Of a stretch of DNA of 11,397 nt, positions 1 to 11,397 are shown piece by piece. The DNA is taken from assembly GCA_030596915.1 (NCBI GenBank), contig JAUVSX010000049.1, positions 1 to 11,397 on the forward strand, given 5' to 3'. The stretch is from Chloroflexota bacterium. GTDB lineage: Bacteria > Chloroflexota > Anaerolineae > B4-G1. Under the pieces are notes generated by a model. That model was given only the letters and a program-made list of their open reading frames with translations. It had not been told where the DNA came from and ran no database searches. Every line of letters begins with the position of its first letter. Within the stretch, counting starts at the first letter, position 1. A program made the position numbers and the translations under genes.

Positions 1-1347
1 GCCTGCATCCTGCTGTTCCTCGGCCTCAGATACTGGCCAGTCGCCGTGGTCCTGGCACTGCTGTGGATCGGTTGGTATGGGGTCTACGCGGCCAGCAACC
101 TGAGCTTTGGCGCTGTTACGGTAGTCATGTTATGTGGCGTCGTGCCGGCGTGCGTCCTTCTCGTCCTCGGTCTCATCTTGGTGTCGGGATACTTGTTTCC
201 GCCATCGTCTGACAACCTACGATGGAAGGCCCTTCGTGCTCTGCTAACCTTCACGATAGGCACTAACCATCCCTACTACGCCGTCGTCAGTCACGGCGAT
301 GAAGAGAACGAGCTGACGGAGCGCGCTGGCGGCCAGGCGTATCTCAGGGCGCCTGGCATCCCAGGAGGGAACCTGGCCGTCGGACCTGGTCTGGTGCTTA
401 CCGGCTGCGACCACGCCGTCGTCCTCAGCGACGGGCTGAGCCTCAAGGGTGTCCACGGCCCTGGTCTGGTGTTCACCGACACGGGGGACCGGCCCATCCA
501 GACGATCGATCTGCGGCCGCACTACCGTGACTTCGTCGTCAAGGGTGTGACCAAGGATGGCATCCGAGTTGCTGTCGGAGTGTTTGTCGTGTTCGAACTG
601 GACCGTGGCGAGGAGAGACCCACCTCAAGCCGTCCTTTCCCGTACCGGGAGCGGGCAGTGTTTGCCGCTCTGCAAGCGCAGCGCATGCAGCATCTGCCCG
701 ATGAAGTGAGGGAGCGCCGGTGGTACGATCTGCCTGAGCTGGGCGCCCGGCGTGCCCTCCAGGATATCATAGCCGGCAACCCGTTCGACAAGTTGTACCA
801 GGCGCATAGGAGTTCCGCGCCGGACAGACACGGGTCCAGCGGCCTGGAGGGGCATCGGGACCGCAGGATCGTGGGAGATTCGGCCACGTCCGATGAAGAC
901 GCGCGCTCAAGGGTCGTCGGAGAGTTTCGGGCGAGACTGACGGCTGATCTCGCACCCACGGGGATTCGGGTCGTCGACGCGGGCATCACCAATATCCTGC
1001 CCGTCGACGGCGAGGCTGTGCTCAGCCAGCGGATACAAAGCTGGCAGGCCGGTTGGGTGCAGCGGATCATGCTCCGGCAGGCGGAGGGCCAGGCAGAGCG
1101 GCTTAGGCTCGTGGCCGAGGCGCGGGCGCGAGCGCAGGAAGCGCTGATACTTGGCCTCGGCAAGCGTCTGCTGGACATGCACGAGCCTGGCTCGCCTGTC
1201 CCTGCCGAGGACGTTGCCAGATGGTTCCTGGAAGTGCTGCGAGAGATGGCATACCGTCCATCGGTCTTGCCTTTGCTGCCGCAGGAGACTACTGACACAA
1301 TGGAGCAAGTCCTGCGGAAGCTCAAGGACGCGCGTGACCACGCCTAG
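1..1347 (+). CDS. SPFH/band-7 (stomatin/flotillin/HflK-HflC-like) membrane protein, paralog 1; probably 5'-partial, since the frame is open back to nt 1 and the GTG at 46 is only the first in-window start
   Basis: The frame is open from 1 to the TAG at 1345-1347. The N-terminus is hydrophobic (LALLWIGWYGVYAASNLSFGAVTVVMLCGVVPACVLLVLGLILVSGYLF), giving 1-2 TM helices. The core 'GPGLVFTDTGDRPIQTIDLRPHYRDFVVKGVTKDGIRVAVGVFVVFEL' matches the SPFH/band-7 pattern (PGlhf.iP.id.v..vDLR.q.ldv..q.v.TkDnv.v.vdavv.y.v). The C-terminus is Ala/Glu/Arg/Gln-rich and coiled-coil-like (QAEGQAERLRLVAEARARAQEAL), as in flotillins. It is clearly paralogous to the C-terminal third of the next gene. No SD is visible before the GTG at 46. 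Confidence 0.8.
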   Translation, partial: ACILLFLGLRYWPVAVVLALLWIGWYGVYAASNLSFGAVTVVMLCGVVPACVLLVLGLILVSGYLFPPSSDNLRWKALRALLTFTIGTNHPYYAVVSHGDEENELTERAGGQAYLRAPGIPGGNLAVGPGLVLTGCDHAVVLSDGLSLKGVHGPGLVFTDTGDRPIQTIDLRPHYRDFVVKGVTKDGIRVAVGVFVVFELDRGEERPTSSRPFPYRERAVFAALQAQRMQHLPDEVRERRWYDLPELGARRALQDIIAGNPFDKLYQAHRSSAPDRHGSSGLEGHRDRRIVGDSATSDEDARSRVVGEFRARLTADLAPTGIRVVDAGITNILPVDGEAVLSQRIQSWQAGWVQRIMLRQAEGQAERLRLVAEARARAQEALILGLGKRLLDMHEPGSPVPAEDVARWFLEVLREMAYRPSVLPLLPQETTDTMEQVLRKLKDARDHA

Positions 1348-1417
1348 CATCCCCGGACAGGCTGCTCCTTGGCAGGTTGTCGCACCGAAGCGGCTGGGGT
1401 ACTCCGCTCGCCTTGCG

Positions 1418-4400
1418 ATGCTCGGGCTCGTCTTTATCCCTATCGTGCTACTCAGCGTGCTGGCGGAAGCTGGCATTCAAGGCGTGCCGGTTGCAGACAT
1501 CATGTCCAGGCTCACCCGCGGGTCCAGCAGGCTCAAGTCTGCTCGGATGGACGAAAGTGTCTGGCGGGCCTACCGAGTCGACAGTGAGGGTGATGTGGGA
1601 CGCTATGCATCGTCGGCTCTCGATACGGGAACCGGCGTGTTGCACGTAGGTTATCGCGACGAGACGAATGGCGACCTCAAGTACGCGCGGCGCGACGGAG
1701 AGTTGTGGCAGGTCCAGACCGTGGATGGCGGGGGGGATGTAGGCGCGTATGCCTCGCTGGCGCTCGATCCCAGCGGACTCCCGCGGATCGCCTACGTTGA
1801 CATCACGAACCAGCGGCTGAAGTATGCCTCTTGGGACGGAGCCGCGTGGCGCGTACAGACGGTGGTGGACACGGGCGCCCTCGGGCAGTATGCGTCGCTG
1901 GCTCTCGACGCGAGCGGCCGTCCGCACATCGCGTACTACGACGGCGTGAACGGTGACCTCGTGTACGTACGGCAGGACGGCGCGATGTGGCAATCGCAGA
2001 CCGTCGACAGCTCGGGAGATGTCGGTCAGTATGCCTCCCTGGCTCTGGACAGCGTCGGCAACCCCCACATCGCCTACTATGATGCCACCATGGGTGCGCT
2101 GAAGTACGGCGTCTGGGACGTGAACGGGTGGCAGCTTCTGATCGTGGACGGCGCCAATGATGACGTGGGGCTCTATGCGTCTCTAGTGCTCGACGACTCT
2201 GGAGTCGCCAGCGTCAGCTACTATGACAGGACGAACGGAGACCTGAAACTGATCTACGCGAGTGAGCAGGGTTGGACGGCTCAGGCAGTGGATAGCGCCG
2301 GCGATGTCGGTCCCTATTCGTCGATGGCCCTCGACTCTGGAGGCTATCCCTGCATCAGCTACTTTGACACCAGCAATGACCACTTGAAATACACCTGTTG
2401 GCGGGCGGGAGGCTGGCAGACCTGGACGGTGAATGGCTCCGAGGAGGTGGGCGTGTTCTCGTCCCTCGCTCTCGACCCTGTCAACGGATGCCCTCACATC
2501 AGCTACTACGATAGGATCGCGGGCGATCTTCGACACGCCACTCAGGCCAGAGGCGCTTGGGAGATCGATCTTGTAGATGGGGAGGGGGACGTAGGCTACT
2601 CCGCATCAGTTGGGCTGGCCCCTGAGAGCGGGCACGCGCGAATTAGCTACTATGACAGATATCCCCGGCACGACCTCAAGGTCGCTTCCTGGGACGGGAC
2701 AGGCTGGGCCATTGAGGTCGTTGACGCAGTCGGGGACGTGGGCAGCCACAGCTCGCTAGCGATCGGGAACTCTGGGCGTGCGCATATCGCGTACTCTGAC
2801 GGGACGATTGGCTCTCTCAGGGTCGCTATCTCAAGTGAGTCGGGGTGGCACAGGCAGACGGTAGCGGGCGGCCCCGGGATTGGAGAGCATGCCTCGTTGG
2901 CCCTCGATTGGCAGGAGCAGCCGCGCATCGCAGACTATGACAGCTCGAGCCGTGCGCTGATCTACGCGCGGTGGCACGGAGTGGCGTGGCAGATCGCGAC
3001 GGTGGACCAGAGCGCGGATGTGGGGCGCTATGCATCCCTCGCGCTCGATGGAGCAGGATTCCCGCGAATCGCATACTACGACGAAGCAAACGGCGAGCTG
3101 AAGTACGCGGACTGGCTTGGCACGAGCTGGCGGACCCAAGTTGTGGACAGCGCGGGCGATGTGGGGAAGTACGCAGCTCTGGCCCTTGATCGTAGCGGGA
3201 GCCCTCACGTAGCGTACCTCGACAACAAGGCGCTCGACCTGAAGTACGCTTTCTGGGATGGAGCAGAATGGCAGGTGCAGACGGTGGATGGCGGCGGCAG
3301 GGTGGGGCTGTACGCTTCCATCGCGCTCGACGGCCACGATAATCCGCGCATAGCATACTACGACGAGAGCCAAGCGACCCTGAAGCTGGCCACTTGGGAC
3401 GGCAGGGCCTGGTCCATCCAGACGGTGGACCGGGCAGGGGATGTTGGCAGACACGCGTCGCTGGCAGCGGACTCCCGAGGCCTGTTGCAGGTCGCATACT
3501 GCGAACATCTAGGGCCGGCCTGGCCGGGGGTCATTCGCAACGCTGGTCTTGCCGTTCTGGCGATGGTGCTTGTTCCGATACTAGCTTCGCGCTTCATGCG
3601 AGCGCTGTATGGGTTGGATAGCCTGAGCGATGCCTACGCCCATTTGCACAGGAGCGTGTTTGGGTTGAGCGGCGTGCGCCCGCTGTTGCTCGTACGCGAG
3701 GGGCGATTGGCCACGGACGGTGACGAGCCAGCGGCTCGCTTGGGGGGGCCGAGCAACCTGATCGCCTACAACGATAGTGCGGTGGTCGCGGAGCAGGGGG
3801 GGCGCTTGACGCGCGTGCTCGGCCCAGGTGTCCATCGGCTTAGGGCTTTCGAGAGGGTCTGGGTGAGCGTAGACTTGCGACCCCAGAGTCGACGGTTCCG
3901 CCTCCTGGCGATGACTGTTGAGGGCATCTGGGTAGCGTGCAAGGGCGAGGTGGCGTTCAGGATCCTAGGCGGCTCCAAGGCACCGACCGACAAGATGCCG
4001 TATCCCTACACGGATAAGGCTGTGGTCAGGGCGGCGATGGCTACTTGGGTCCGGGAGGCTGGCGACGATATTGAACCGGACTCCGAGCCGTGGAAGGTGA
4101 AATGGCCGGCCCGCATTGTCGGAGGGGAAAAGGGCGGCCCGTCCGCCTTGGACAGACCGTCCATCACCGAGGGCGCACGCAAATCCCCAGGCGTTGTCGG
4201 GCTCACGGAAAGGATGTTGCGCGACCTGATCAGCCGGTATCGGCTCGACGACCTTGTCGTGCCACAGCGACCGGGCTCACGTCAACCGCGTCAGGTGATC
4301 CGCGACGAGTTGACCAGGCGGCTTCGGCCCGCGGCGGCAAGTGTGGGCGTCGAGATCATCAGAGTCGAGCTGGACGAATTCGAGGTGGACGAGAGAGTCT

Positions 4401-4738
4401 CGGATCAATGGATCAAGGCGTGGCAGGCGGAATGGCAGCGGGATGCGATGTTTGTCCAGGCCGAGGGGGAGGCGCAGTTGGCGACCATCGACGCCGCCCA
4501 GACACGGGCTCAGGTTCAGATGATCCGCACGCTGGTGGAAAGGCTGCAACCGCTAGTCAAGGTACGGGAGCAGGCGGCGGTATACGAGGTTGCTGTCCGG
4601 CTAGTCGAGACTCTTCGCTGGATGTCGTTCGATCCGGTAACCCGAGCCTTCCTCCCTCCGGAAGCTCTCCAATCGCTGCAGGAACTGGAAGACAGTCTGT
4701 CAACCGGGCAGGCGCACGCCCAACCGGGTGCGAAATGA
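1418..4738 (+). CDS. Large membrane protein: N-terminal signal anchor, 14-blade beta-propeller-like repeat ectodomain, single TM helix, C-terminal SPFH/band-7 domain with coiled coil (paralog 2)
   Basis: The ORF-track frame 1151..4738 overlaps gene 1 with Cys/Arg-rich junk. The first canonical start after gene 1's stop is the ATG at 1418-1420, in frame (MLGLVFIPIVLLSVLAEAGIQG, a hydrophobic signal/anchor). No ATG/GTG/TTG occurs in frame between 1349 and 1418. Residues about 148-786 are 14 tandem copies of a 47-aa repeat. A TM helix (AGLAVLAMVLVPILASRF) lies at about nt 3540-3600. The downstream segment 'GPGVHRLRAFERVWVSVDLRPQSRRFRLLAMTVEGIWVACKGEVAFRILG' is an SPFH core that aligns with gene 1. 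The coiled-coil tail is 'QAEGEAQLATIDAAQTRAQVQMIRTLVERLQ'. The stop is the TGA at 4736-4738. Confidence 0.85.
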   Translation: MLGLVFIPIVLLSVLAEAGIQGVPVADIMSRLTRGSSRLKSARMDESVWRAYRVDSEGDVGRYASSALDTGTGVLHVGYRDETNGDLKYARRDGELWQVQTVDGGGDVGAYASLALDPSGLPRIAYVDITNQRLKYASWDGAAWRVQTVVDTGALGQYASLALDASGRPHIAYYDGVNGDLVYVRQDGAMWQSQTVDSSGDVGQYASLALDSVGNPHIAYYDATMGALKYGVWDVNGWQLLIVDGANDDVGLYASLVLDDSGVASVSYYDRTNGDLKLIYASEQGWTAQAVDSAGDVGPYSSMALDSGGYPCISYFDTSNDHLKYTCWRAGGWQTWTVNGSEEVGVFSSLALDPVNGCPHISYYDRIAGDLRHATQARGAWEIDLVDGEGDVGYSASVGLAPESGHARISYYDRYPRHDLKVASWDGTGWAIEVVDAVGDVGSHSSLAIGNSGRAHIAYSDGTIGSLRVAISSESGWHRQTVAGGPGIGEHASLALDWQEQPRIADYDSSSRALIYARWHGVAWQIATVDQSADVGRYASLALDGAGFPRIAYYDEANGELKYADWLGTSWRTQVVDSAGDVGKYAALALDRSGSPHVAYLDNKALDLKYAFWDGAEWQVQTVDGGGRVGLYASIALDGHDNPRIAYYDESQATLKLATWDGRAWSIQTVDRAGDVGRHASLAADSRGLLQVAYCEHLGPAWPGVIRNAGLAVLAMVLVPILASRFMRALYGLDSLSDAYAHLHRSVFGLSGVRPLLLVREGRLATDGDEPAARLGGPSNLIAYNDSAVVAEQGGRLTRVLGPGVHRLRAFERVWVSVDLRPQSRRFRLLAMTVEGIWVACKGEVAFRILGGSKAPTDKMPYPYTDKAVVRAAMATWVREAGDDIEPDSEPWKVKWPARIVGGEKGGPSALDRPSITEGARKSPGVVGLTERMLRDLISRYRLDDLVVPQRPGSRQPRQVIRDELTRRLRPAAASVGVEIIRVELDEFEVDERVSDQWIKAWQAEWQRDAMFVQAEGEAQLATIDAAQTRAQVQMIRTLVERLQPLVKVREQAAVYEVAVRLVETLRWMSFDPVTRAFLPPEALQSLQELEDSLSTGQAHAQPGAK
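1592..3507 (+). repeat. 14 tandem, diverged copies of a roughly 141-bp coding repeat (about 47 aa each) within CDS 1418..4738; predicted beta-propeller blades
   Basis: The protein-level consensus is D-V-G-x-Y-A-S-L-A-L-D-x-S-G-x-P-H-I-A-Y-Y-D-x-x-N-G-D-L-K-Y-A-x-W-D-G-x-x-W-x-x-Q-T-V-D-x-x-G. Copies 1 and 2 begin at nt 1592 and 1736 (GAT GTG GGA / GAT GTA GGC). The last copy ends '...RGLLQVAYCEH' at about 3507. Each copy has four short segments rich in beta-branched and aromatic residues (YASLALD / PHIAYYD / LKYAxWDG / WxxQTVD), as expected for a 4-stranded propeller blade. Fourteen copies fit two 7-bladed propellers. Confidence 0.8.
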
Positions 4739-4740
4739 CC

Positions 4741-4775
4741 CCTCTGGACGGGCGCGAGGCCGCCGTCGTCCTCAG
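4741..4775. terminator. GC-rich imperfect hairpin between convergent genes; a possible bidirectional terminator with no U-tract
   Basis: ggacg (4746-4750) pairs with cgtcc (4767-4771) around a GC-rich loop (ggcgcgaggccgccgt) that can form further G-C pairs. It sits in the 54-nt gap between the TGA of the + gene (4738) and the TAG of the - gene (4793-4795). No T-rich tail follows. Confidence 0.2.
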
Positions 4776-4792
4776 AACGGCCAGCCTGACCG

Positions 4793-5629
4793 CTACTTGA
4801 TGACGAATTGCGCAATACCCTCCAGGCGCGTCTCGATGAACACGCGGATCTCGTAGTTCCCCAGTTGCCACCCTGCTATCGGCTGACAGGTGACGGAGGT
4901 CTGGCCCTGCTCTCCCCAGACTCGGCCCTCCACAAGATCCCAAAGCCAGGTTCCGGAACACACCTCCAAGAGTTCACCCTCCTGATACCACGCGACAGTC
5001 ACGGGCACCCCCGCATCCATTCCTTCGTGCTGAAAGAACAGATATACGAGATGATGACCCGGAGGGAACTCCTTGCCAGGATCCACGGGGAGGCCGTCGG
5101 CATCCACCTGGGTGGCGAGCGCCAGCAACTGAATACGCGAGTCTTCGCGGGCCGGCAGCGCCGATGGGATGGGTGTCAGCGCCGTGTCTGGAGGGCGAAC
5201 GGTCGGCGTCGGCGTCGGTATTGGCGGAGGCGTCGCTGTGGGTCGTCGGGTCGGTGTTATCGTGGGTATCTGGGGCGGCGTCGCCGTTGGCCGTCGTGTA
5301 GCGGTGGGTGTGGTTATGGGTGTCTCAGATGGCACCGGCACGGGCGTAGGGGTCGGCGTGGACGTCAGGAGCGGCGTAACCGTAGGAGGGCTCGGAAGGA
5401 CGTAGGCCACGAATGAAGGAACGAGGAGCAAGACAATGGCCACAGACGGCAGCACCGCGGACACCAAGAGCCACCGTGTGGCGCGGCTGAACGCAGCACG
5501 GCGCACCGCGTAGTATGCAGCACGGCGCGCCTTCGTGAACTCGGCCAGTGCCAGCCCGATGGGGATCAGTGTGAGTGCGAACAGCAGGTACGCCAGCCAA
5601 CGCACGAATACTAGCACTTGAGCGCTCAA
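4793..5629 (-). CDS. Hypothetical membrane protein: two N-terminal TM helices, a Pro/Thr-rich low-complexity linker and a C-terminal domain of about 110 aa with unknown function
   Basis: A 278-aa ORF on the - strand. TM1 is VLVFVRWLAYLLFALTLIPIGLALA. A basic loop (KARRAAYYAVRRAAFSRATR) follows, then TM2 (LLVSAVLPSVAIVLLLVPSFVAYVL), then a PT-rich stretch (TPTPTPVPVPSETPITTPTATRRPTATPPQIPTITPTRRPTATPPPIPTPTPT), then a Trp-rich globular tail. The start is a TTG at 5627-5629, about 10 nt after a GAGG; an alternative GTG lies at 5615-5617. The stop is the TAG at 4793-4795. Third codon positions are G/C-biased in this frame. Confidence 0.6.
   Translation of the reverse strand: MSAQVLVFVRWLAYLLFALTLIPIGLALAEFTKARRAAYYAVRRAAFSRATRWLLVSAVLPSVAIVLLLVPSFVAYVLPSPPTVTPLLTSTPTPTPVPVPSETPITTPTATRRPTATPPQIPTITPTRRPTATPPPIPTPTPTVRPPDTALTPIPSALPAREDSRIQLLALATQVDADGLPVDPGKEFPPGHHLVYLFFQHEGMDAGVPVTVAWYQEGELLEVCSGTWLWDLVEGRVWGEQGQTSVTCQPIAGWQLGNYEIRVFIETRLEGIAQFVIK
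5222..5325 (-). repeat. Imperfect tandem duplication of about 48 bp (16 aa) inside the Pro/Thr-rich linker of CDS 4793..5629
   Basis: The encoded 'RRPTATPPQIPTITPT' is followed directly by 'RRPTATPPPIPTPTPT'. On the + strand this reads as GT-rich 'gcgtcgctgtgggtcgtcgg...' then 'gcgtcgccgttggccgtcg...'. It is a low-complexity PT linker typical of secreted and cell-surface proteins of high-GC Gram-positive and Chloroflexi bacteria. Confidence 0.5.
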
Positions 5630-7618: not shown

Positions 7619-10024
7619 TCAGGGAGGGGTGACCCTCGCCTGCGTGAGAACGATGTGGTCTGCGAGCATCTGTCCGCCAGGAGGTATCACCGGCAAGTGA
7701 TGGATCTCCGCTTCGTCGAGCCAGTAGACCGCCACGCGTACGTCGTACACGCCGCTCGCTGCATCTGCAGAGATTGCCAGCCTCCTCGGGTCAACGACGA
7801 TCTCCCCGGGGTCCCAGGATGTCGTCGGGGCGGCGCCGTCTTGGGGCCAACTGTCGTGCTGCGCCGCCTTCGATTGTTGGGAGTCAACCAACTGCGCCGA
7901 AACTGTGTAGTCGACGGTCATCGGGCGCAGGGCCTTCCAGTATAGCGTTAGGGTAATCTCCTCGCCGGGAGCAGCGACTCGCCGGTCAAGATCGTATCCG
8001 ACGAGCGCCATGCGGTCCCCGAAGCTCACCCAGATCGGATTCGGGATCTGTCCGCCACGCGCCTGGATGTCGATTCGTCCGAAGCGGACGTGGTCGCCGA
8101 TGATTGCCCCGTCGCGATCCACGGCCGTAAGCCGCGCGCCGCTCTGGGGCTCAAACACACCAACCTCGATTCGGGCCTGGTCGGGGGTGTACGCGGTAGC
8201 GGGCAACTGCAGCACATAGCGATCCGCCCAGCGGAAACCTGGCTCCAGCGAGGTAGACGATAGCAACCCGAGGCCAGGGAAGGTGTCCCGCTGAGCCACA
8301 AGAAGGTCACCCTCTCCTAACAGGTGCACGAACACGGTGTGGTCCGCAGACGCGGGTGCGAGTGCCTCCCAGTACAAGGTGACGGGAAGCAGGCCGCCGG
8401 GCTGCACCGCCTGTGCCCCTACTTCGTACCCCAGCAGGCGCATCGTGGGTTGGACGTCGGCGCCGTCCTGAGTCGGCGCGCCGAAGTCGATGTGCAGGGG
8501 CTCGGGAATTGCCGCCACTCCCGCTGCGGTCAACGGATCGGGCAGCGCGTACGCCGGCGTGATCCAGGCGAACGGGGCGTACGTGGCAAGGGCGAACAGG
8601 AACAGGACGATCGACGCCAGGACCCATCGACCCCAAAGGCGGGGCACCCACGCCGTCAGCCCAAGTGCCAGCAGCATCGACCAGACCGGAATCGCTGAGA
8701 ATATCAGCCGGCCCTGAGAGGACCACGTGACCGACGCCCACCTAGACCAGGGAACCAAGACACCGAGGCCCCAGAGTAGGCAGAACAGGAAAGGCACGTA
8801 GCGGATTCTGCTCAGCCTGGGCGGAGGCACCGGGCGCCCAGGCCGACCGCGGAGAAGCCGTACCAACCATCGCACTAGCTCGACAGCCAGACCGGCCGCG
8901 CTGATGACGGCAAGCCAACTCAGAATCTGATAGGCCCAGTCGGGCATCGGGACATTCAGCCCGCCAAAGTTGCCCCAATAGCCGGCGGCAAAGCTGAAGC
9001 GTTCGCGCCACAATTGGGCCAGGTCGGCTGGCACGTCCCGCTGGCCGAGAATCTCGATGAAGACATTGAGGCCGGACGGATCGCCGTAAAGCAGCAGGTT
9101 TCGCAGGTACCACCACCCGGCCATCAAGAGCATCGGCAGCGACGCCGCAAGTCCGCCGATCACGAACTCTGCCCACGATCGCCGTCGCACCGCTCGGACG
9201 GTCACAACGAGGGCCGTGAGCAGGGTCAGTGCCAGCGAACTCGTCTTCGTGAGCGCCGCAAGGCCCAGCACAACGCCCAGCATCAGGTAACGGATGACAG
9301 GCACGTTTCTGGCGGCTGACCGCAGACCACTCCTATCACCGTCATCCAACGGAGCAGCGTGCGAGCTGTCATCGGGTCCGCCGGCGCGCCCTGCTGACGA
9401 GTCGCTTCTCAAGAGCCGGAGCAGCAGCAGCAGTGCCAGGCTGCTGAGCGGCACAACGAGATTGTCGTTGTTCACGGCGCCGGAGATGAACACGTACATC
9501 GGAGTGAAGGCGTGGATTCCGGCCGCGCCGAGGGCGAGACAAGGGCGATCTGGCGCCACCTCGCGCACGATTAGCCAGGTCAGGTAGACGGCGAAGGTGC
9601 TCGTCACGACGGAAAGCAGACGCACGAGATGAACTGCCAGAGTGGTGCCGCCCCACGGGAATGCCTCCTGCGTCTGGTTGTGGACGATCAGATTGATGTT
9701 GCCATCCGGGGTGGCCACTCCGATGTCGACGTGTGGATTGAGGCGCCGAACGTGATCTATGTCGGACGTGTCGATCCAGGCTGTCGCGAGCGCCCCGACA
9801 AAGTAGTACAGGGGGGGCTGGCTGCCCTCCTGCCGCCACGGCCCGACGTTGGCCGGGTCTTGGACCGGAAGAGCCCAGTGATCTGCGATGTGCTTGACCA
9901 TCGGATAGTGCCATAGCTCGTCGGATGCCTCGAAGGGCGGCACTGCGATGCTGTAAATGGTGGCCAACACAACGAACGCCACCAGAATCGCCATGAGAAG
10001 GCTGCGCTCGGTCCGTTTGCTCAC
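7619..10024 (-). CDS. ArnT/PMT-like GT-C fold glycosyltransferase (GT39/GT83-type, polyprenyl-phosphate-sugar dependent), with a duplicated C-terminal extracytoplasmic domain
   Basis: An 801-aa protein. It has about 12-14 predicted TM helices in the first roughly 500 aa. The first extracytoplasmic loop, 'PPFEASDELWHYPMVKHIADHWALP...PWRQEGSQPPLYYF', matches the ArnT/PMT signature (D-E/D-x-R-Y ... W-V-T-P ... YFEKPPLxYW). The C-terminal roughly 300 aa contains two copies of a module of about 130 aa (LLGYEV...LPVTLYWEAL...YTVFVHLLGEGD... and LVGYDLD...ITLTLYWKALRP...YTVSAQLVDSQQ...). The GTG start at 10022-10024 overlaps the upstream TGA (GTGA) and follows a GGAG at 8-nt spacing. An alternative ATG lies at 9992-9994. 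The stop is the TGA at 7619-7621. Confidence 0.75.
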   Translation of the reverse strand: MSKRTERSLLMAILVAFVVLATIYSIAVPPFEASDELWHYPMVKHIADHWALPVQDPANVGPWRQEGSQPPLYYFVGALATAWIDTSDIDHVRRLNPHVDIGVATPDGNINLIVHNQTQEAFPWGGTTLAVHLVRLLSVVTSTFAVYLTWLIVREVAPDRPCLALGAAGIHAFTPMYVFISGAVNNDNLVVPLSSLALLLLLRLLRSDSSAGRAGGPDDSSHAAPLDDGDRSGLRSAARNVPVIRYLMLGVVLGLAALTKTSSLALTLLTALVVTVRAVRRRSWAEFVIGGLAASLPMLLMAGWWYLRNLLLYGDPSGLNVFIEILGQRDVPADLAQLWRERFSFAAGYWGNFGGLNVPMPDWAYQILSWLAVISAAGLAVELVRWLVRLLRGRPGRPVPPPRLSRIRYVPFLFCLLWGLGVLVPWSRWASVTWSSQGRLIFSAIPVWSMLLALGLTAWVPRLWGRWVLASIVLFLFALATYAPFAWITPAYALPDPLTAAGVAAIPEPLHIDFGAPTQDGADVQPTMRLLGYEVGAQAVQPGGLLPVTLYWEALAPASADHTVFVHLLGEGDLLVAQRDTFPGLGLLSSTSLEPGFRWADRYVLQLPATAYTPDQARIEVGVFEPQSGARLTAVDRDGAIIGDHVRFGRIDIQARGGQIPNPIWVSFGDRMALVGYDLDRRVAAPGEEITLTLYWKALRPMTVDYTVSAQLVDSQQSKAAQHDSWPQDGAAPTTSWDPGEIVVDPRRLAISADAASGVYDVRVAVYWLDEAEIHHLPVIPPGGQMLADHIVLTQARVTPP

Positions 10025-11187
10025 GCGCCTAGCTCCGCGAAGAACTCCACCGTCCGCGCCGCGATTCGATCCCAGGTGAACTCCTCCGCCAGGCTCTTCG
10101 CGCCCACTGCCAGACGTTCCCGCAATCCTTCGTCCGCCGCCAGCTCCGTGACTGCGTGGGCCAGCGCGGGCACATCCTGAGCCTGAACGAGTAGCGCGTT
10201 CTCGTGATCGCGGAGATCAGGCGTTTCGATGGTGGGCCACGTGGTCACGATGGGTCGTCCGTGCGCCAGGCAGGCGTGCAGACTCCCGTGGCGGAGGGAT
10301 ACGCCATCGCGATAGGGCAGCACACTGACGTCCGTGGCGATCAAGCTCGCCGAGACTTCCTCGGGCGAAACGAATCCGGTGCGATGCACGCGGTGCAGGA
10401 CGCCCCGCCGCTCGATCAGCGCGTCGACGCGGCGCGCATACTCGACGTTGGTCGGATCGGAGGTGCCCGCGCGTCCGCCGATCAGCAGAAGGTGGGCAGG
10501 GAGCCCCCGCTCAACGAGCAGCGCCAGCGTCTCGATCAGGTCTTCCCCGCCCTTGCGCTCGTTGAGGAAGCCGAACTATCCAAGTACCAGGTCGCCCGGG
10601 CCGATGCCCCACCTGGCCCGCGTGCTGTGTCTGTCGTAGCTCGGGGGGAGGCGCGGCGCGATGTTGCTGCCAATCGGAATACGGACGAGTGGGGTGGCCA
10701 GATGGCAACCTGCAAGCCGTGCGTGGTCCTCGCGGTTAGTCAATATCGCGCCGTCAGACCTGCGCGCAAGGGCGAGTACTGCTTGCCAGCGCAGCGGGCC
10801 CGCCTTTGGGAAGAGGTAAGGAACCCGAAGATCGTGGAATGTGACGACAATCGGAGGTTTCCCCTGCCCAGTGGACCCCGGAGGCAGCAGGTTGATACCC
10901 GGGTGCATGCCGTAGGCTGCCGTCTGGTATTGGATGTCAAACACATCAAGCTGAAGCGGTCCGGCCACCTGCCCGAGCGAGTGCCAGATGCGCCAGCCCC
11001 AGTTGGACACGACGCGATGAACCCTCAGGGGGTACAATACTTTCTCCTGACGGGTGGGCGGCCTCTCGCCGGTGATGATGTGCACATCGTGGCCGGCCGC
11101 AGCCAAGGCCCGGCCAAGCGCGCGGGTGTAGTCTCCGACGCCGCCCTGATCAGGTGGGTACTCGCCTGTGATCAATCCAATCCGCAT
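10021..11187 (-). pseudogene. GT4-family (GT-B fold) glycosyltransferase interrupted by one in-frame TAG at 10576-10578; a nonsense mutation, a sequencing error or readthrough. The N-terminal fragment is 11187..10576 and the C-terminal fragment, in the same frame, runs from 10575 to the TGA at 10021-10023
   Basis: The N-terminus 'MRIGLITGEYPPDQGGVGDYTRALGRALAAAGHDVHIITG' is a classic GT4 N-terminal domain. After '...GPGDLVLG' comes a TAG. The same frame then continues with no further stop: 'FGFLNERKGGEDLIETLALLVERGLPAHLLLIGGRAGTSDPTNVEYARRVDALIERRGVLHRVHRTGFVSPEEVSASLIATDVSVLPYRDGVSLRHGSLHACLAHGRPIVTT...FAELGA*'. This is the Glycos_transf_1 C-terminal domain (xFGFLxxxKG motif; E..G.P.V.T). 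The ORF-track entries 10576..11298 and 10021..10389 are in one frame (both ≡ 0 mod 3). The true start is the ATG at 11185-11187, preceded by AGGAA. The N-terminal extension back to 11298 overlaps the upstream gene and is rejected. Confidence 0.65.
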
Positions 11188-11397
11188 GTCGGCAGGTTTC
11201 CTACGATATGCGCGCCTGGCCTCAGCCCGGTCCCGAGAACCTGGGAGTAAGCCGCCAGCCGCTGTGCCCGCAGATCTCTCCGGTGGCCAACCAGCCACTT
11301 GCTCCCCTCAATCACGATCTGCCAGGCGTCGTTTCCCAGCAGGAAGAAGCGCAGCGTTTCCCCCGCCAGCTTGCCGTGGTGCTTCTGGAAGTAGCGC
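11172..11397 (-). CDS. 3' end of an unknown protein-coding gene; its 5' end lies beyond the window
   Basis: A minus-strand frame is open from the window edge to the TGA at 11172-11174. It translates as '...RYFQKHHGKLAGETLRFFLLGNDAWQIVIEGSKWLVGHRRDLRAQRLAAYSQVLGTGLRPGAHIVGNLPTCGLD*'. About 85% of third codon positions are G/C, as in the confirmed genes. It is absent from the ORF track only because there is no start codon inside the window. Its last 16 nt overlap the GT4 start codon. Confidence 0.5.
   Translation of the reverse strand, partial: RYFQKHHGKLAGETLRFFLLGNDAWQIVIEGSKWLVGHRRDLRAQRLAAYSQVLGTGLRPGAHIVGNLPTCGLD

Follow-up and report, generated by a model that had tools for sequence, protein, structure and literature searches.

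A conserved SPFH gene pair of Anaerolineae and a rare variant with a predicted double propeller in its transmembrane loop

The question raised by the locus described here is what a membrane protein of the SPFH type is doing with a large repeat region that is predicted to lie on the other face of the membrane. The function of SPFH proteins in prokaryotes is still poorly understood, and the solved cages that this protein resembles have nothing large on the opposite membrane face. The locus lies at the beginning of a stretch of 11,397 nucleotides (nt) from a Chloroflexota bacterium (positions 1-11,397 of contig JAUVSX010000049.1, GenBank assembly GCA_030596915.1), which is called the window throughout. 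An original prediction, made from the letters of the sequence, had placed here two adjacent open reading frames (ORFs) on the same strand, both coding for SPFH proteins and the second also for 14 propeller-like repeats, and had proposed a candidate for a previously undescribed system. Both ORFs are present on the + strand, and we refer to them as S1 and S2. The novelty claim holds for the architecture, since no characterised family combining propeller and SPFH was found, but not for the underlying S1-S2 pair, which is widespread; the window is a rare ectodomain-bearing variant of it.

The assignment of both proteins to the SPFH superfamily proved sound. The Pfam model Band_7 (PF01145, gathering score 23.6) matches S1 with 26.3 bits (E 9e-6) and S2 with 45.5 bits (E 1e-11), the orthologs of both also carry PF01145, and a membrane anchor N-terminal to the SPFH domain is recognisable by hydropathy, with about four transmembrane (TM) helices in the orthologs of S1. 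S1 and the C-terminal third of S2 are 28% identical over 353 columns (BLASTP, E=3e-24), and their final ~110 residues, an Ala/Gln/Glu/Arg-rich coiled-coil tail already described as shared in the original prediction, are collinear. Family models in NCBIfam gave no match to S1 or S2 at E<=0.01, and a sequence search of the PDB with the SPFH profile gave a weak match to stomatin (E=0.005). We also modelled the C-terminal 412 residues of S2 with AlphaFold2, using an alignment with 35 family members (model A1). The model has a mean predicted local distance difference test score (pLDDT) of 77.5 and comprises a TM helix, an alpha/beta domain, a helix of 57 residues and further helices. Compared with the PDB by Foldseek, its top match is HflK/C (7vhq, E=2.9e-10), followed by stomatin, prohibitin, erlin-1/2, QmcA, flotillin and the major vault protein, with E from 3e-10 to 1e-7 over 300-350 columns; all of these are cage-forming SPFH proteins. 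The C-terminal part of S2 is predicted to have the fold and tail of a cage-type SPFH protein, and its modelled helical tail corresponds to the wall- and cap-forming elements of the solved cages. From homology to S2, we infer an SPFH fold and a long coiled-coil helix for S1 as well.

The pair has a long history within a single bacterial class. Searching for homologs of the C-terminal region of S2 gave about 70 clusters, nearly all of proteins of 388-532 amino acids (aa); the few named ones come from Chloroflexota or Anaerolineae metagenome-assembled genomes and bear generic annotations, merely 'SPFH domain-containing protein' or 'HflC'. Relatives numbered 112 in a scan of one genome per GTDB species and 137 in JGI metagenomes, every named host being a metagenome-assembled genome of the Anaerolineae (Anaerolineales, Thermoflexales or Caldilineae). 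All ORFs of 165 fetched loci were classed by BLAST against the window proteins; pairing could be assessed from the extent of the contig in 139 loci, and in 137 of these an S1-type gene lies directly upstream of an S2-type gene. S1 orthologs are 33-50% identical to S1, S2 orthologs 36-50% identical to the C-terminal part of S2, and S1 and S2 always 24-29% identical to each other. The adjacency together with this constant identity indicates that the duplication is old and the pairing stable. The two genes, originally thought to differ only in what precedes their SPFH modules, are in fact anciently diverged, and each has an ortholog set of its own, as two separate genes would and a single gene split in assembly would not. 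Among five relatives, the spacing of S1 and S2 ranges from overlaps of 14-44 nt to gaps of at most 68 nt, and in one protein (P0267) the two are directly fused. On present sequence comparisons the S1-S2 pair appears to be a conserved, uncharacterised module restricted to the class Anaerolineae of the Chloroflexota.

What sets the S2 of the window apart from this family is found between its two TM helices. Propeller-less S2 orthologs have a first helix (TM1, …LLSVLAEAG), a loop with a median length of 26 aa and a second helix (TM2, …LVPLLASRFMRALY). The flanking motifs, LLSVLAEAG on one side and LASRFMRALY on the other, are common to these orthologs and to the window S2, in which about 660-680 residues separate the two flanks instead of ~26. 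The propeller region is an insertion in the short loop of a TM hairpin that was already present. The anchor, the 14 repeats and the following TM helix of the original description were all found, but as a loop insertion and not as an N-terminal addition. This insertion seems to be rare and specific to a lineage. Among the ORFs of the 165 loci there was no propeller match, and in a search of 5.8 billion proteins the sole other one with the propeller-TM2-SPFH layout was P0029, a 688-aa, N-terminally truncated metagenomic protein from a different sample (46-50% identical to S2 by search), in which at least six blades are followed by TM2 and then by the SPFH domain. A search of 1.84 billion representatives added just a 131-aa fragment (P0195) that is 95% identical to the window, and among the 150 best matches listed there was no other protein with an SPFH start more than ~250 residues from the N terminus. 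The fusion is seen in the window lineage and in P0029 only.

In order to establish the fold of the inserted region, which follows a hydrophobic helix at residues 1-19 (S2 numbered from the ATG at 1418) and contains 14 repeats of ~47 aa at ~53-700, before the second TM helix at ~708-727 and the Band_7 region, we have modelled residues 45-705 with AlphaFold2, the input alignment being 11 rows of cropped homologs. Each repeat comes out as four strands in an all-beta model with a mean pLDDT of 87.2, a predicted template modelling score (pTM) of 0.59 and a dip in pLDDT at model residues ~290-350; the pTM and the dip together fit two rigid bodies. By Foldseek against the PDB, about half of the model (~355 columns) falls on the seven-bladed Photorhabdus lectins PLL/PHL, with template modelling scores of 0.75-0.80 (normalised to target length), and proteins with propellers in tandem, LRP6 and DDB1 among them, align with the entire model. 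The 14 repeats most likely form two seven-bladed propellers, a 7+7 split that we infer from these models. A single propeller of 14 blades, the form given in the original prediction, was dropped in favour of two of seven, given the half-length Foldseek matches and the pTM of 0.59.

The repeat itself is recognisable in sequence at the margin of existing models. BNR_4 (PF15892) scores 28.5 against a cutoff of 27.3, yet no individual stretch passes alone, and DUF7253 (PF23911) scores 24.1 against 25.1. Tandem Repeats Finder reported nothing in the repeat region of S2 because the DNA copies are too diverged, and a sequence search of the PDB with the propeller gave no match. All 14 blades retain the repeat consensus; their mutual identity is ~43%, about that found with the blades of P0029, and a blade-by-blade comparison with P0029, made to see whether the 14-blade array had been passed down whole, gave no diagonal signal. 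Searching with full-length S2 gave 4163 matches, mostly from the repeat, which in the matches listed, from bacteria and archaea alike, is accompanied by PKD, Ig-like, FlgD-Ig, SLH, subtilisin and CopC domains. Of the propeller-only sequences, the two that were read (P0001 and P0066) have signal-peptide-like N-terminal segments. Elsewhere, this type of repeat appears to belong to secreted or surface proteins.

A way to decide on which side of the membrane the propellers lie is to look at the charges and at the domains that relatives have acquired at different points of S2. In the 42 family members for which two TM helices were cleanly predicted, K+R make up 25% of the N-tail (median 13 aa), and the loop has a net acidic character (median 2 K/R vs 3 D/E). 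The last TM helix of the S1 ortholog in locus L002 is followed by RVRRRK. The termini of S2 are fused in relatives to an S24 peptidase with a GDSM motif, to EAD7 or to a STAND NTPase; S24 (LexA-type) peptidases, EAD7 and STAND NTPases are typically cytoplasmic modules. The TM1-TM2 loop holds insertions of another kind, 150-190 aa long: one with weak CBM66/concanavalin-like and 3-keto-disaccharide-hydrolase-like matches (L010 5242-7107), one with weak Pfam matches that is probably Ig-like (L079 605-2596, P0321), and an Ig domain of the NBR1 type (P0336). This loop appears to be a recurrent site of domain insertion. The K/R-rich N-tail, the acidic loop, the RVRRRK motif, the cytoplasmic-type fusions at the termini and the extracytoplasmic-type inserts in the loop all lead to an N-in, loop-out, SPFH-in arrangement. 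We predict accordingly from these features that the SPFH and coiled-coil parts of S1 and S2 are cytoplasmic and that the S2 loop with its propellers is outside, with S1 anchored by about four TM helices and S2 by a two-helix TM hairpin. The original prediction had likewise put propeller and SPFH domain on opposite membrane faces, and the charge bias and domain fusions favour this placement.

As a separate observation, Effector-associated domain 7 (EAD7), a STAND NTPase or Peptidase_S24 was recorded on S1/S2 relatives at L045 4502-6520 and L076 2797-5397 and in P0272, P0284, P0252 and P0225. These fusions link the SPFH family to components of conflict systems.

The features of the two genes are collected in Table 1. 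The start of S2 has two candidates. An AAGGA sits 5 nt before the GTG at 1334, which adds an N-tail containing K/R (…APKRLGYSARLA) whose residues KRLGYSARLA align with ortholog N-tails. Starting at the ATG leaves a 70-nt gap to S1, and starting at the GTG produces a 14-nt overlap with the S1 stop, equal to that of a relative (L005). Because of the upstream AAGGA, the aligning N-tail and the matching overlap, the GTG is more likely to be the true start; the 70-nt gap of the original prediction would hold for the ATG but not for the GTG. The S2 ORF is uninterrupted over 1106-1134 codons with both propeller junctions in frame, and the G+C content of the window is uniform (62-66%). Scanning for promoters and terminators gave results at chance level, with no terminator-like site between S1 and S2, and the two genes are probably co-transcribed.

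Table 1. Features of the S1-S2 pair in the window (nt positions of the whole stretch).
Feature	Position	Strand	Basis
S1, polytopic SPFH paralog, 5'-truncated by the window edge	1..1347	+	frame open from base 1; Band_7 match
S2, SPFH paralog with propeller insertion	1334..4738	+	ORF; likely GTG 1334 (1134 aa), alternative ATG 1418 (1106 aa)
TM1 of S2 (MLGLVFIPIVLLSVLAEAG), first arm of the ancestral TM hairpin	1418..1474	+	hydropathy; aligns with TM1 of propeller-less orthologs P0121-P0128
Repeats 1-7 (~47 aa each), predicted first seven-bladed beta-propeller	1574..2572	+	repeat register, AlphaFold2, Foldseek; boundary to second approximate
Repeats 8-14, predicted second seven-bladed beta-propeller	2573..3517	+	repeat register, AlphaFold2, Foldseek
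TM2 of S2 (AGLAVLAMVLVPILASRFM), second hairpin arm	3539..3598	+	hydropathy; LASRF motif kept in orthologs; AlphaFold2 helix at model residues 7-37
SPFH alpha/beta core of S2, including a low-confidence insertion of ~45 aa	3683..4387	+	Band_7, AlphaFold2 model, Foldseek
Long coiled-coil helix (57 residues) and C-terminal helices of S2	4391..4717	+	AlphaFold2 helices 298-354, 361-375, 387-406

The S1 frame ends with a TAG at 1345-1347 (448 visible codons plus stop) and is open from the first base, so that the gene must be cut at its 5' side by the window edge. The window holds the 3' ~90% of S1, some ~50 residues being absent when compared with orthologs of 473-496 aa. The visible codons start within hydrophobic helices, with TM segments at nt ~1-210, the SPFH core at ~370-1020 and the coiled-coil tail at ~1006-1344. 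The one or two TM helices originally attributed to S1 have to be revised to the about four of its orthologs, the gene being truncated here. S1 is 47-50% identical to the SPFH genes upstream of S2 in L001 and L002. In several loci, a conserved protein of 270-400 aa is encoded immediately upstream of S1 (L001 5325-6452, L002 5735-6544, L004 3979-5193); it gave no match in a Pfam search, and the equivalent region falls beyond the window.

Downstream of S2, at least 95 of 133 loci have a third gene, coding for TPR repeats and a C-terminal domain (for example L002 9479-10477). In L051, L049 and L047, S2 ends in a fused Peptidase_S24-like tail, and a profile of the C-terminal domain of the third gene matches these tails with E from 1e-8 to 2e-5 in a test set of four sequences. 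The profile matches are moderate evidence for an S24-like domain; in its consensus, the column aligned to the catalytic GDSM motif shows no serine. The third gene is absent in the window, as only 55 nt lie between S2 and the convergent gene. This junction recurs identically in an independent contig of 969 nt (L166) that is 92% identical to window positions 4317-5191. Further on, the window and many of the loci have in common two genes of the opposite strand, one for a membrane protein rich in Pro/Thr and the other uvrC.

Other genes of the window can be described briefly. The membrane protein (4793-5629, -) has 278 aa with a Pro/Thr-rich linker; in many Anaerolineae loci an ortholog of it separates the SPFH operon from uvrC, and it has no Pfam or NCBIfam match. 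Downstream of uvrC is a polytopic glycosyltransferase of the PMT_2/DUF2142 type (7619-10024, -, 801 aa), syntenic with PMT_2 genes of L002, and next to it a frame for a GT4-family glycosyltransferase (10021-11298, -) that is broken by one in-frame TAG at 10576-10578 (…GDLVLG*FGFLNERKG…). The N-terminal part of the latter matches Glyco_transf_4 and the C-terminal part Glyco_trans_1_4; a nonsense mutation, an error of sequencing or a pseudogene may account for the stop.

Several known systems resemble the pair in part. HflK/HflC (SPFH3a/b) of Proteobacteria are likewise adjacent and anciently diverged SPFH paralogs in one operon, with a core and a long coiled-coil helix; 7vhq is the top structural match of the S2 model, and a hetero-oligomeric cage would be the expected assembly. 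They differ in that the SPFH domains of HflK/C are periplasmic behind a single TM helix, whereas those of S1 and S2 are predicted to be cytoplasmic behind about four helices and a hairpin, respectively. The HflK/HflC family models in NCBIfam do not match S1 or S2, the likeness in sequence is limited to the weak Band_7 matches, HflK/C have no ectodomain on the opposite membrane face, and no link to FtsH was seen for S1/S2. Prohibitin-1/2, flotillin-1/2 and erlin-1/2 are also paired paralogs that form one cage, and they match the S2 model with E from 1e-9 to 1e-7; they represent other subfamilies, with 12-16% identity to S2, and none has a large domain on the opposite face. The operons of stomatin and flotillin include an NfeD partner gene, whereas no NfeD-family gene was found either in the window or among the annotated neighbours of the pair in five relatives; the conserved genes flanking it on both sides have no Pfam match.

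Another pair has been described from the same phylum. SPFH11a and SPFH11b are two subgroups always adjacent in one operon and present in 4/8 Chloroflexi genomes (Hinderhofer et al. 2009, PMC2636767). They share with S1/S2 the adjacency in one operon but come from Roseiflexus and relatives, Solibacter and Rhodopirellula instead of Anaerolineae, have far stronger Band_7 matches (E-values 1e-14 to 1e-33, against 9e-6 and 1e-11), and SPFH11b is without the coiled coil that both S1 and S2 possess. Setting S1/S2 against the description of SPFH11 rather than its sequences, we argue that these are different pairs. A full-text search of the literature, of incomplete coverage, gave no paper on a propeller-bearing SPFH protein or on this Anaerolineae family. 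As for the propellers, no single domain matches either half of the repeat region better in fold than PLL/PHL. These lectins are soluble and secreted, and by sequence the S2 repeat belongs to a widespread family with marginal matches to BNR_4 and DUF7253.

These comparisons lead to a model that is conditional in all its steps. S1 and S2 would together build a single ring or cage of both proteins at the cytoplasmic side of the membrane, by analogy with HflK/C, PHB1/2, flotillin-1/2 and erlin-1/2, a proposal based on the strict adjacency, the overlapping genes, the equal-length tails and the natural S1-S2 fusion. Each S2 subunit would display a lectin-like double propeller on the outer face, and the propellers may bind a ligand of the envelope or of the environment, for which a glycan is plausible in view of the lectin-like fold and of the CBM-like insert of L010. 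Such binding might tether the SPFH microdomain to the envelope of the cell, or it might be relayed across the membrane. In relatives, the same scaffold would be wired to cytoplasmic partners, either the TPR/S24-like third gene or an S24 peptidase, EAD7 or STAND NTPase fused to S2. On account of these partners the family can be argued to be a platform for signalling or recruitment, a role that we regard as plausible. We lean slightly towards the whole of this model, a mixed cage beneath the membrane with lectin-like double propellers outside; any particular ligand or output is much less certain.

Several observations weigh against the mixed cage with outer propellers. SPFH proteins such as stomatin and QmcA form homo-oligomers. 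The propeller region is just 13-17% identical to PLL/PHL, which makes a glycan ligand a guess from fold alone. The third gene of most relatives is absent from the window, and thus no output side is visible here. An Arg/Lys-rich stretch right after TM1 of the window S2 (SRLTRGSSRLKSAR) is unusual for a translocated segment. Finally, in one relative (L056 222-2636) the SPFH tail is followed, without a TM helix between them, by Invasin_D3/Big_1 repeats of ~350 aa in all, and such repeats, typical of extracellular proteins, are at odds with the predicted cytoplasmic C terminus.

The first of these points leads to a different reading, in which S1 and S2 each form a homo-oligomeric assembly of their own and their adjacency reflects duplication history and co-regulation. 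Homo-oligomeric SPFH cages are known, the fold matches of S2 include stomatin and QmcA, and the anchors of the two proteins differ (about four TM helices vs a hairpin). Yet S1 and S2 have remained adjacent and co-oriented in nearly all assessable loci despite their low identity, their genes often overlap, which suggests coupled translation, the coiled-coil tails are equal in length and collinear, and P0267 joins both in one chain. Separate assemblies seem to us unlikely.

We take as similarly improbable a conflict or anti-phage system in which S1/S2 acts as the membrane sensor, the propeller recognising a phage or competitor surface molecule and the SPFH platform recruiting death or effector proteins. 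Band7-like domains are among the superstructure-forming modules of conflict systems, and EAD7 recruits effectors, according to the survey by Kaur, Burroughs, Iyer and Aravind 2020 (PMC7159879). EAD7, once a STAND NTPase, and S24 peptidases also occur on S1/S2 relatives, and the variable content of the ectoloop would fit a diversifying sensor. The text of that survey, as far as it was searched, describes neither an Anaerolineae pair nor a propeller-bearing SPFH protein. Speaking against such a sensor, PADLOC gave no match for S1, S2, the TPR gene or the S1-upstream gene, the locus is syntenic beside uvrC and apparently vertically inherited rather than part of a mobile island, and the window itself holds no EAD, vWA, MoxR, STAND, S24 or effector gene.

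Inverted topology, with the SPFH domains outward as in HflK/C and the propellers cytoplasmic, is a poor candidate. HflK/C do provide a precedent for an extracytoplasmic SPFH cage, and the repeats of L056 and the basic stretch after TM1 would be accommodated. It would require the K+R-rich N-tail and the RVRRRK of the L002 S1 to face outward and the acidic loop inward, and it conflicts with the S24, EAD7 and STAND modules at the S2 termini and with the presence of propeller homologs in secreted proteins. That S2 is an assembly chimera or a decaying pseudogene, as the possibly metagenomic origin of the assembly and the in-frame stop of the neighbouring glycosyltransferase gene might suggest, can be dismissed almost entirely, since S2 is one uninterrupted ORF with junctions in frame and uniform G+C, the independent sample of P0029 has the same propeller-TM-SPFH order, all 14 blades keep their consensus and model confidently, and L166 repeats the downstream junction.

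If the mixed cage with outer propellers is correct, S2 would be a natural case in which a binding module on one side of the membrane is coupled to an SPFH scaffold on the other, and the ligand would offer an experimental handle on its function. The hosts are uncultured Anaerolineae, so that tests need heterologous expression. More generally, the variable ectoloop together with the S24, EAD7 or STAND tails hints at SPFH rings as receptor platforms. A bolder version of this, which we hold only tentatively and consider doubtful, is that the S1/S2 pair represents a new class of SPFH-cage transmembrane receptor, in which the variable outward loop senses a ligand and the cytoplasmic cage recruits or activates TPR/S24-like, S24 or EAD7-coupled effectors or a STAND NTPase. 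If so, filamentous Chloroflexota would have a signalling or immune platform of their own, and the window would contain its largest ectodomain variant.

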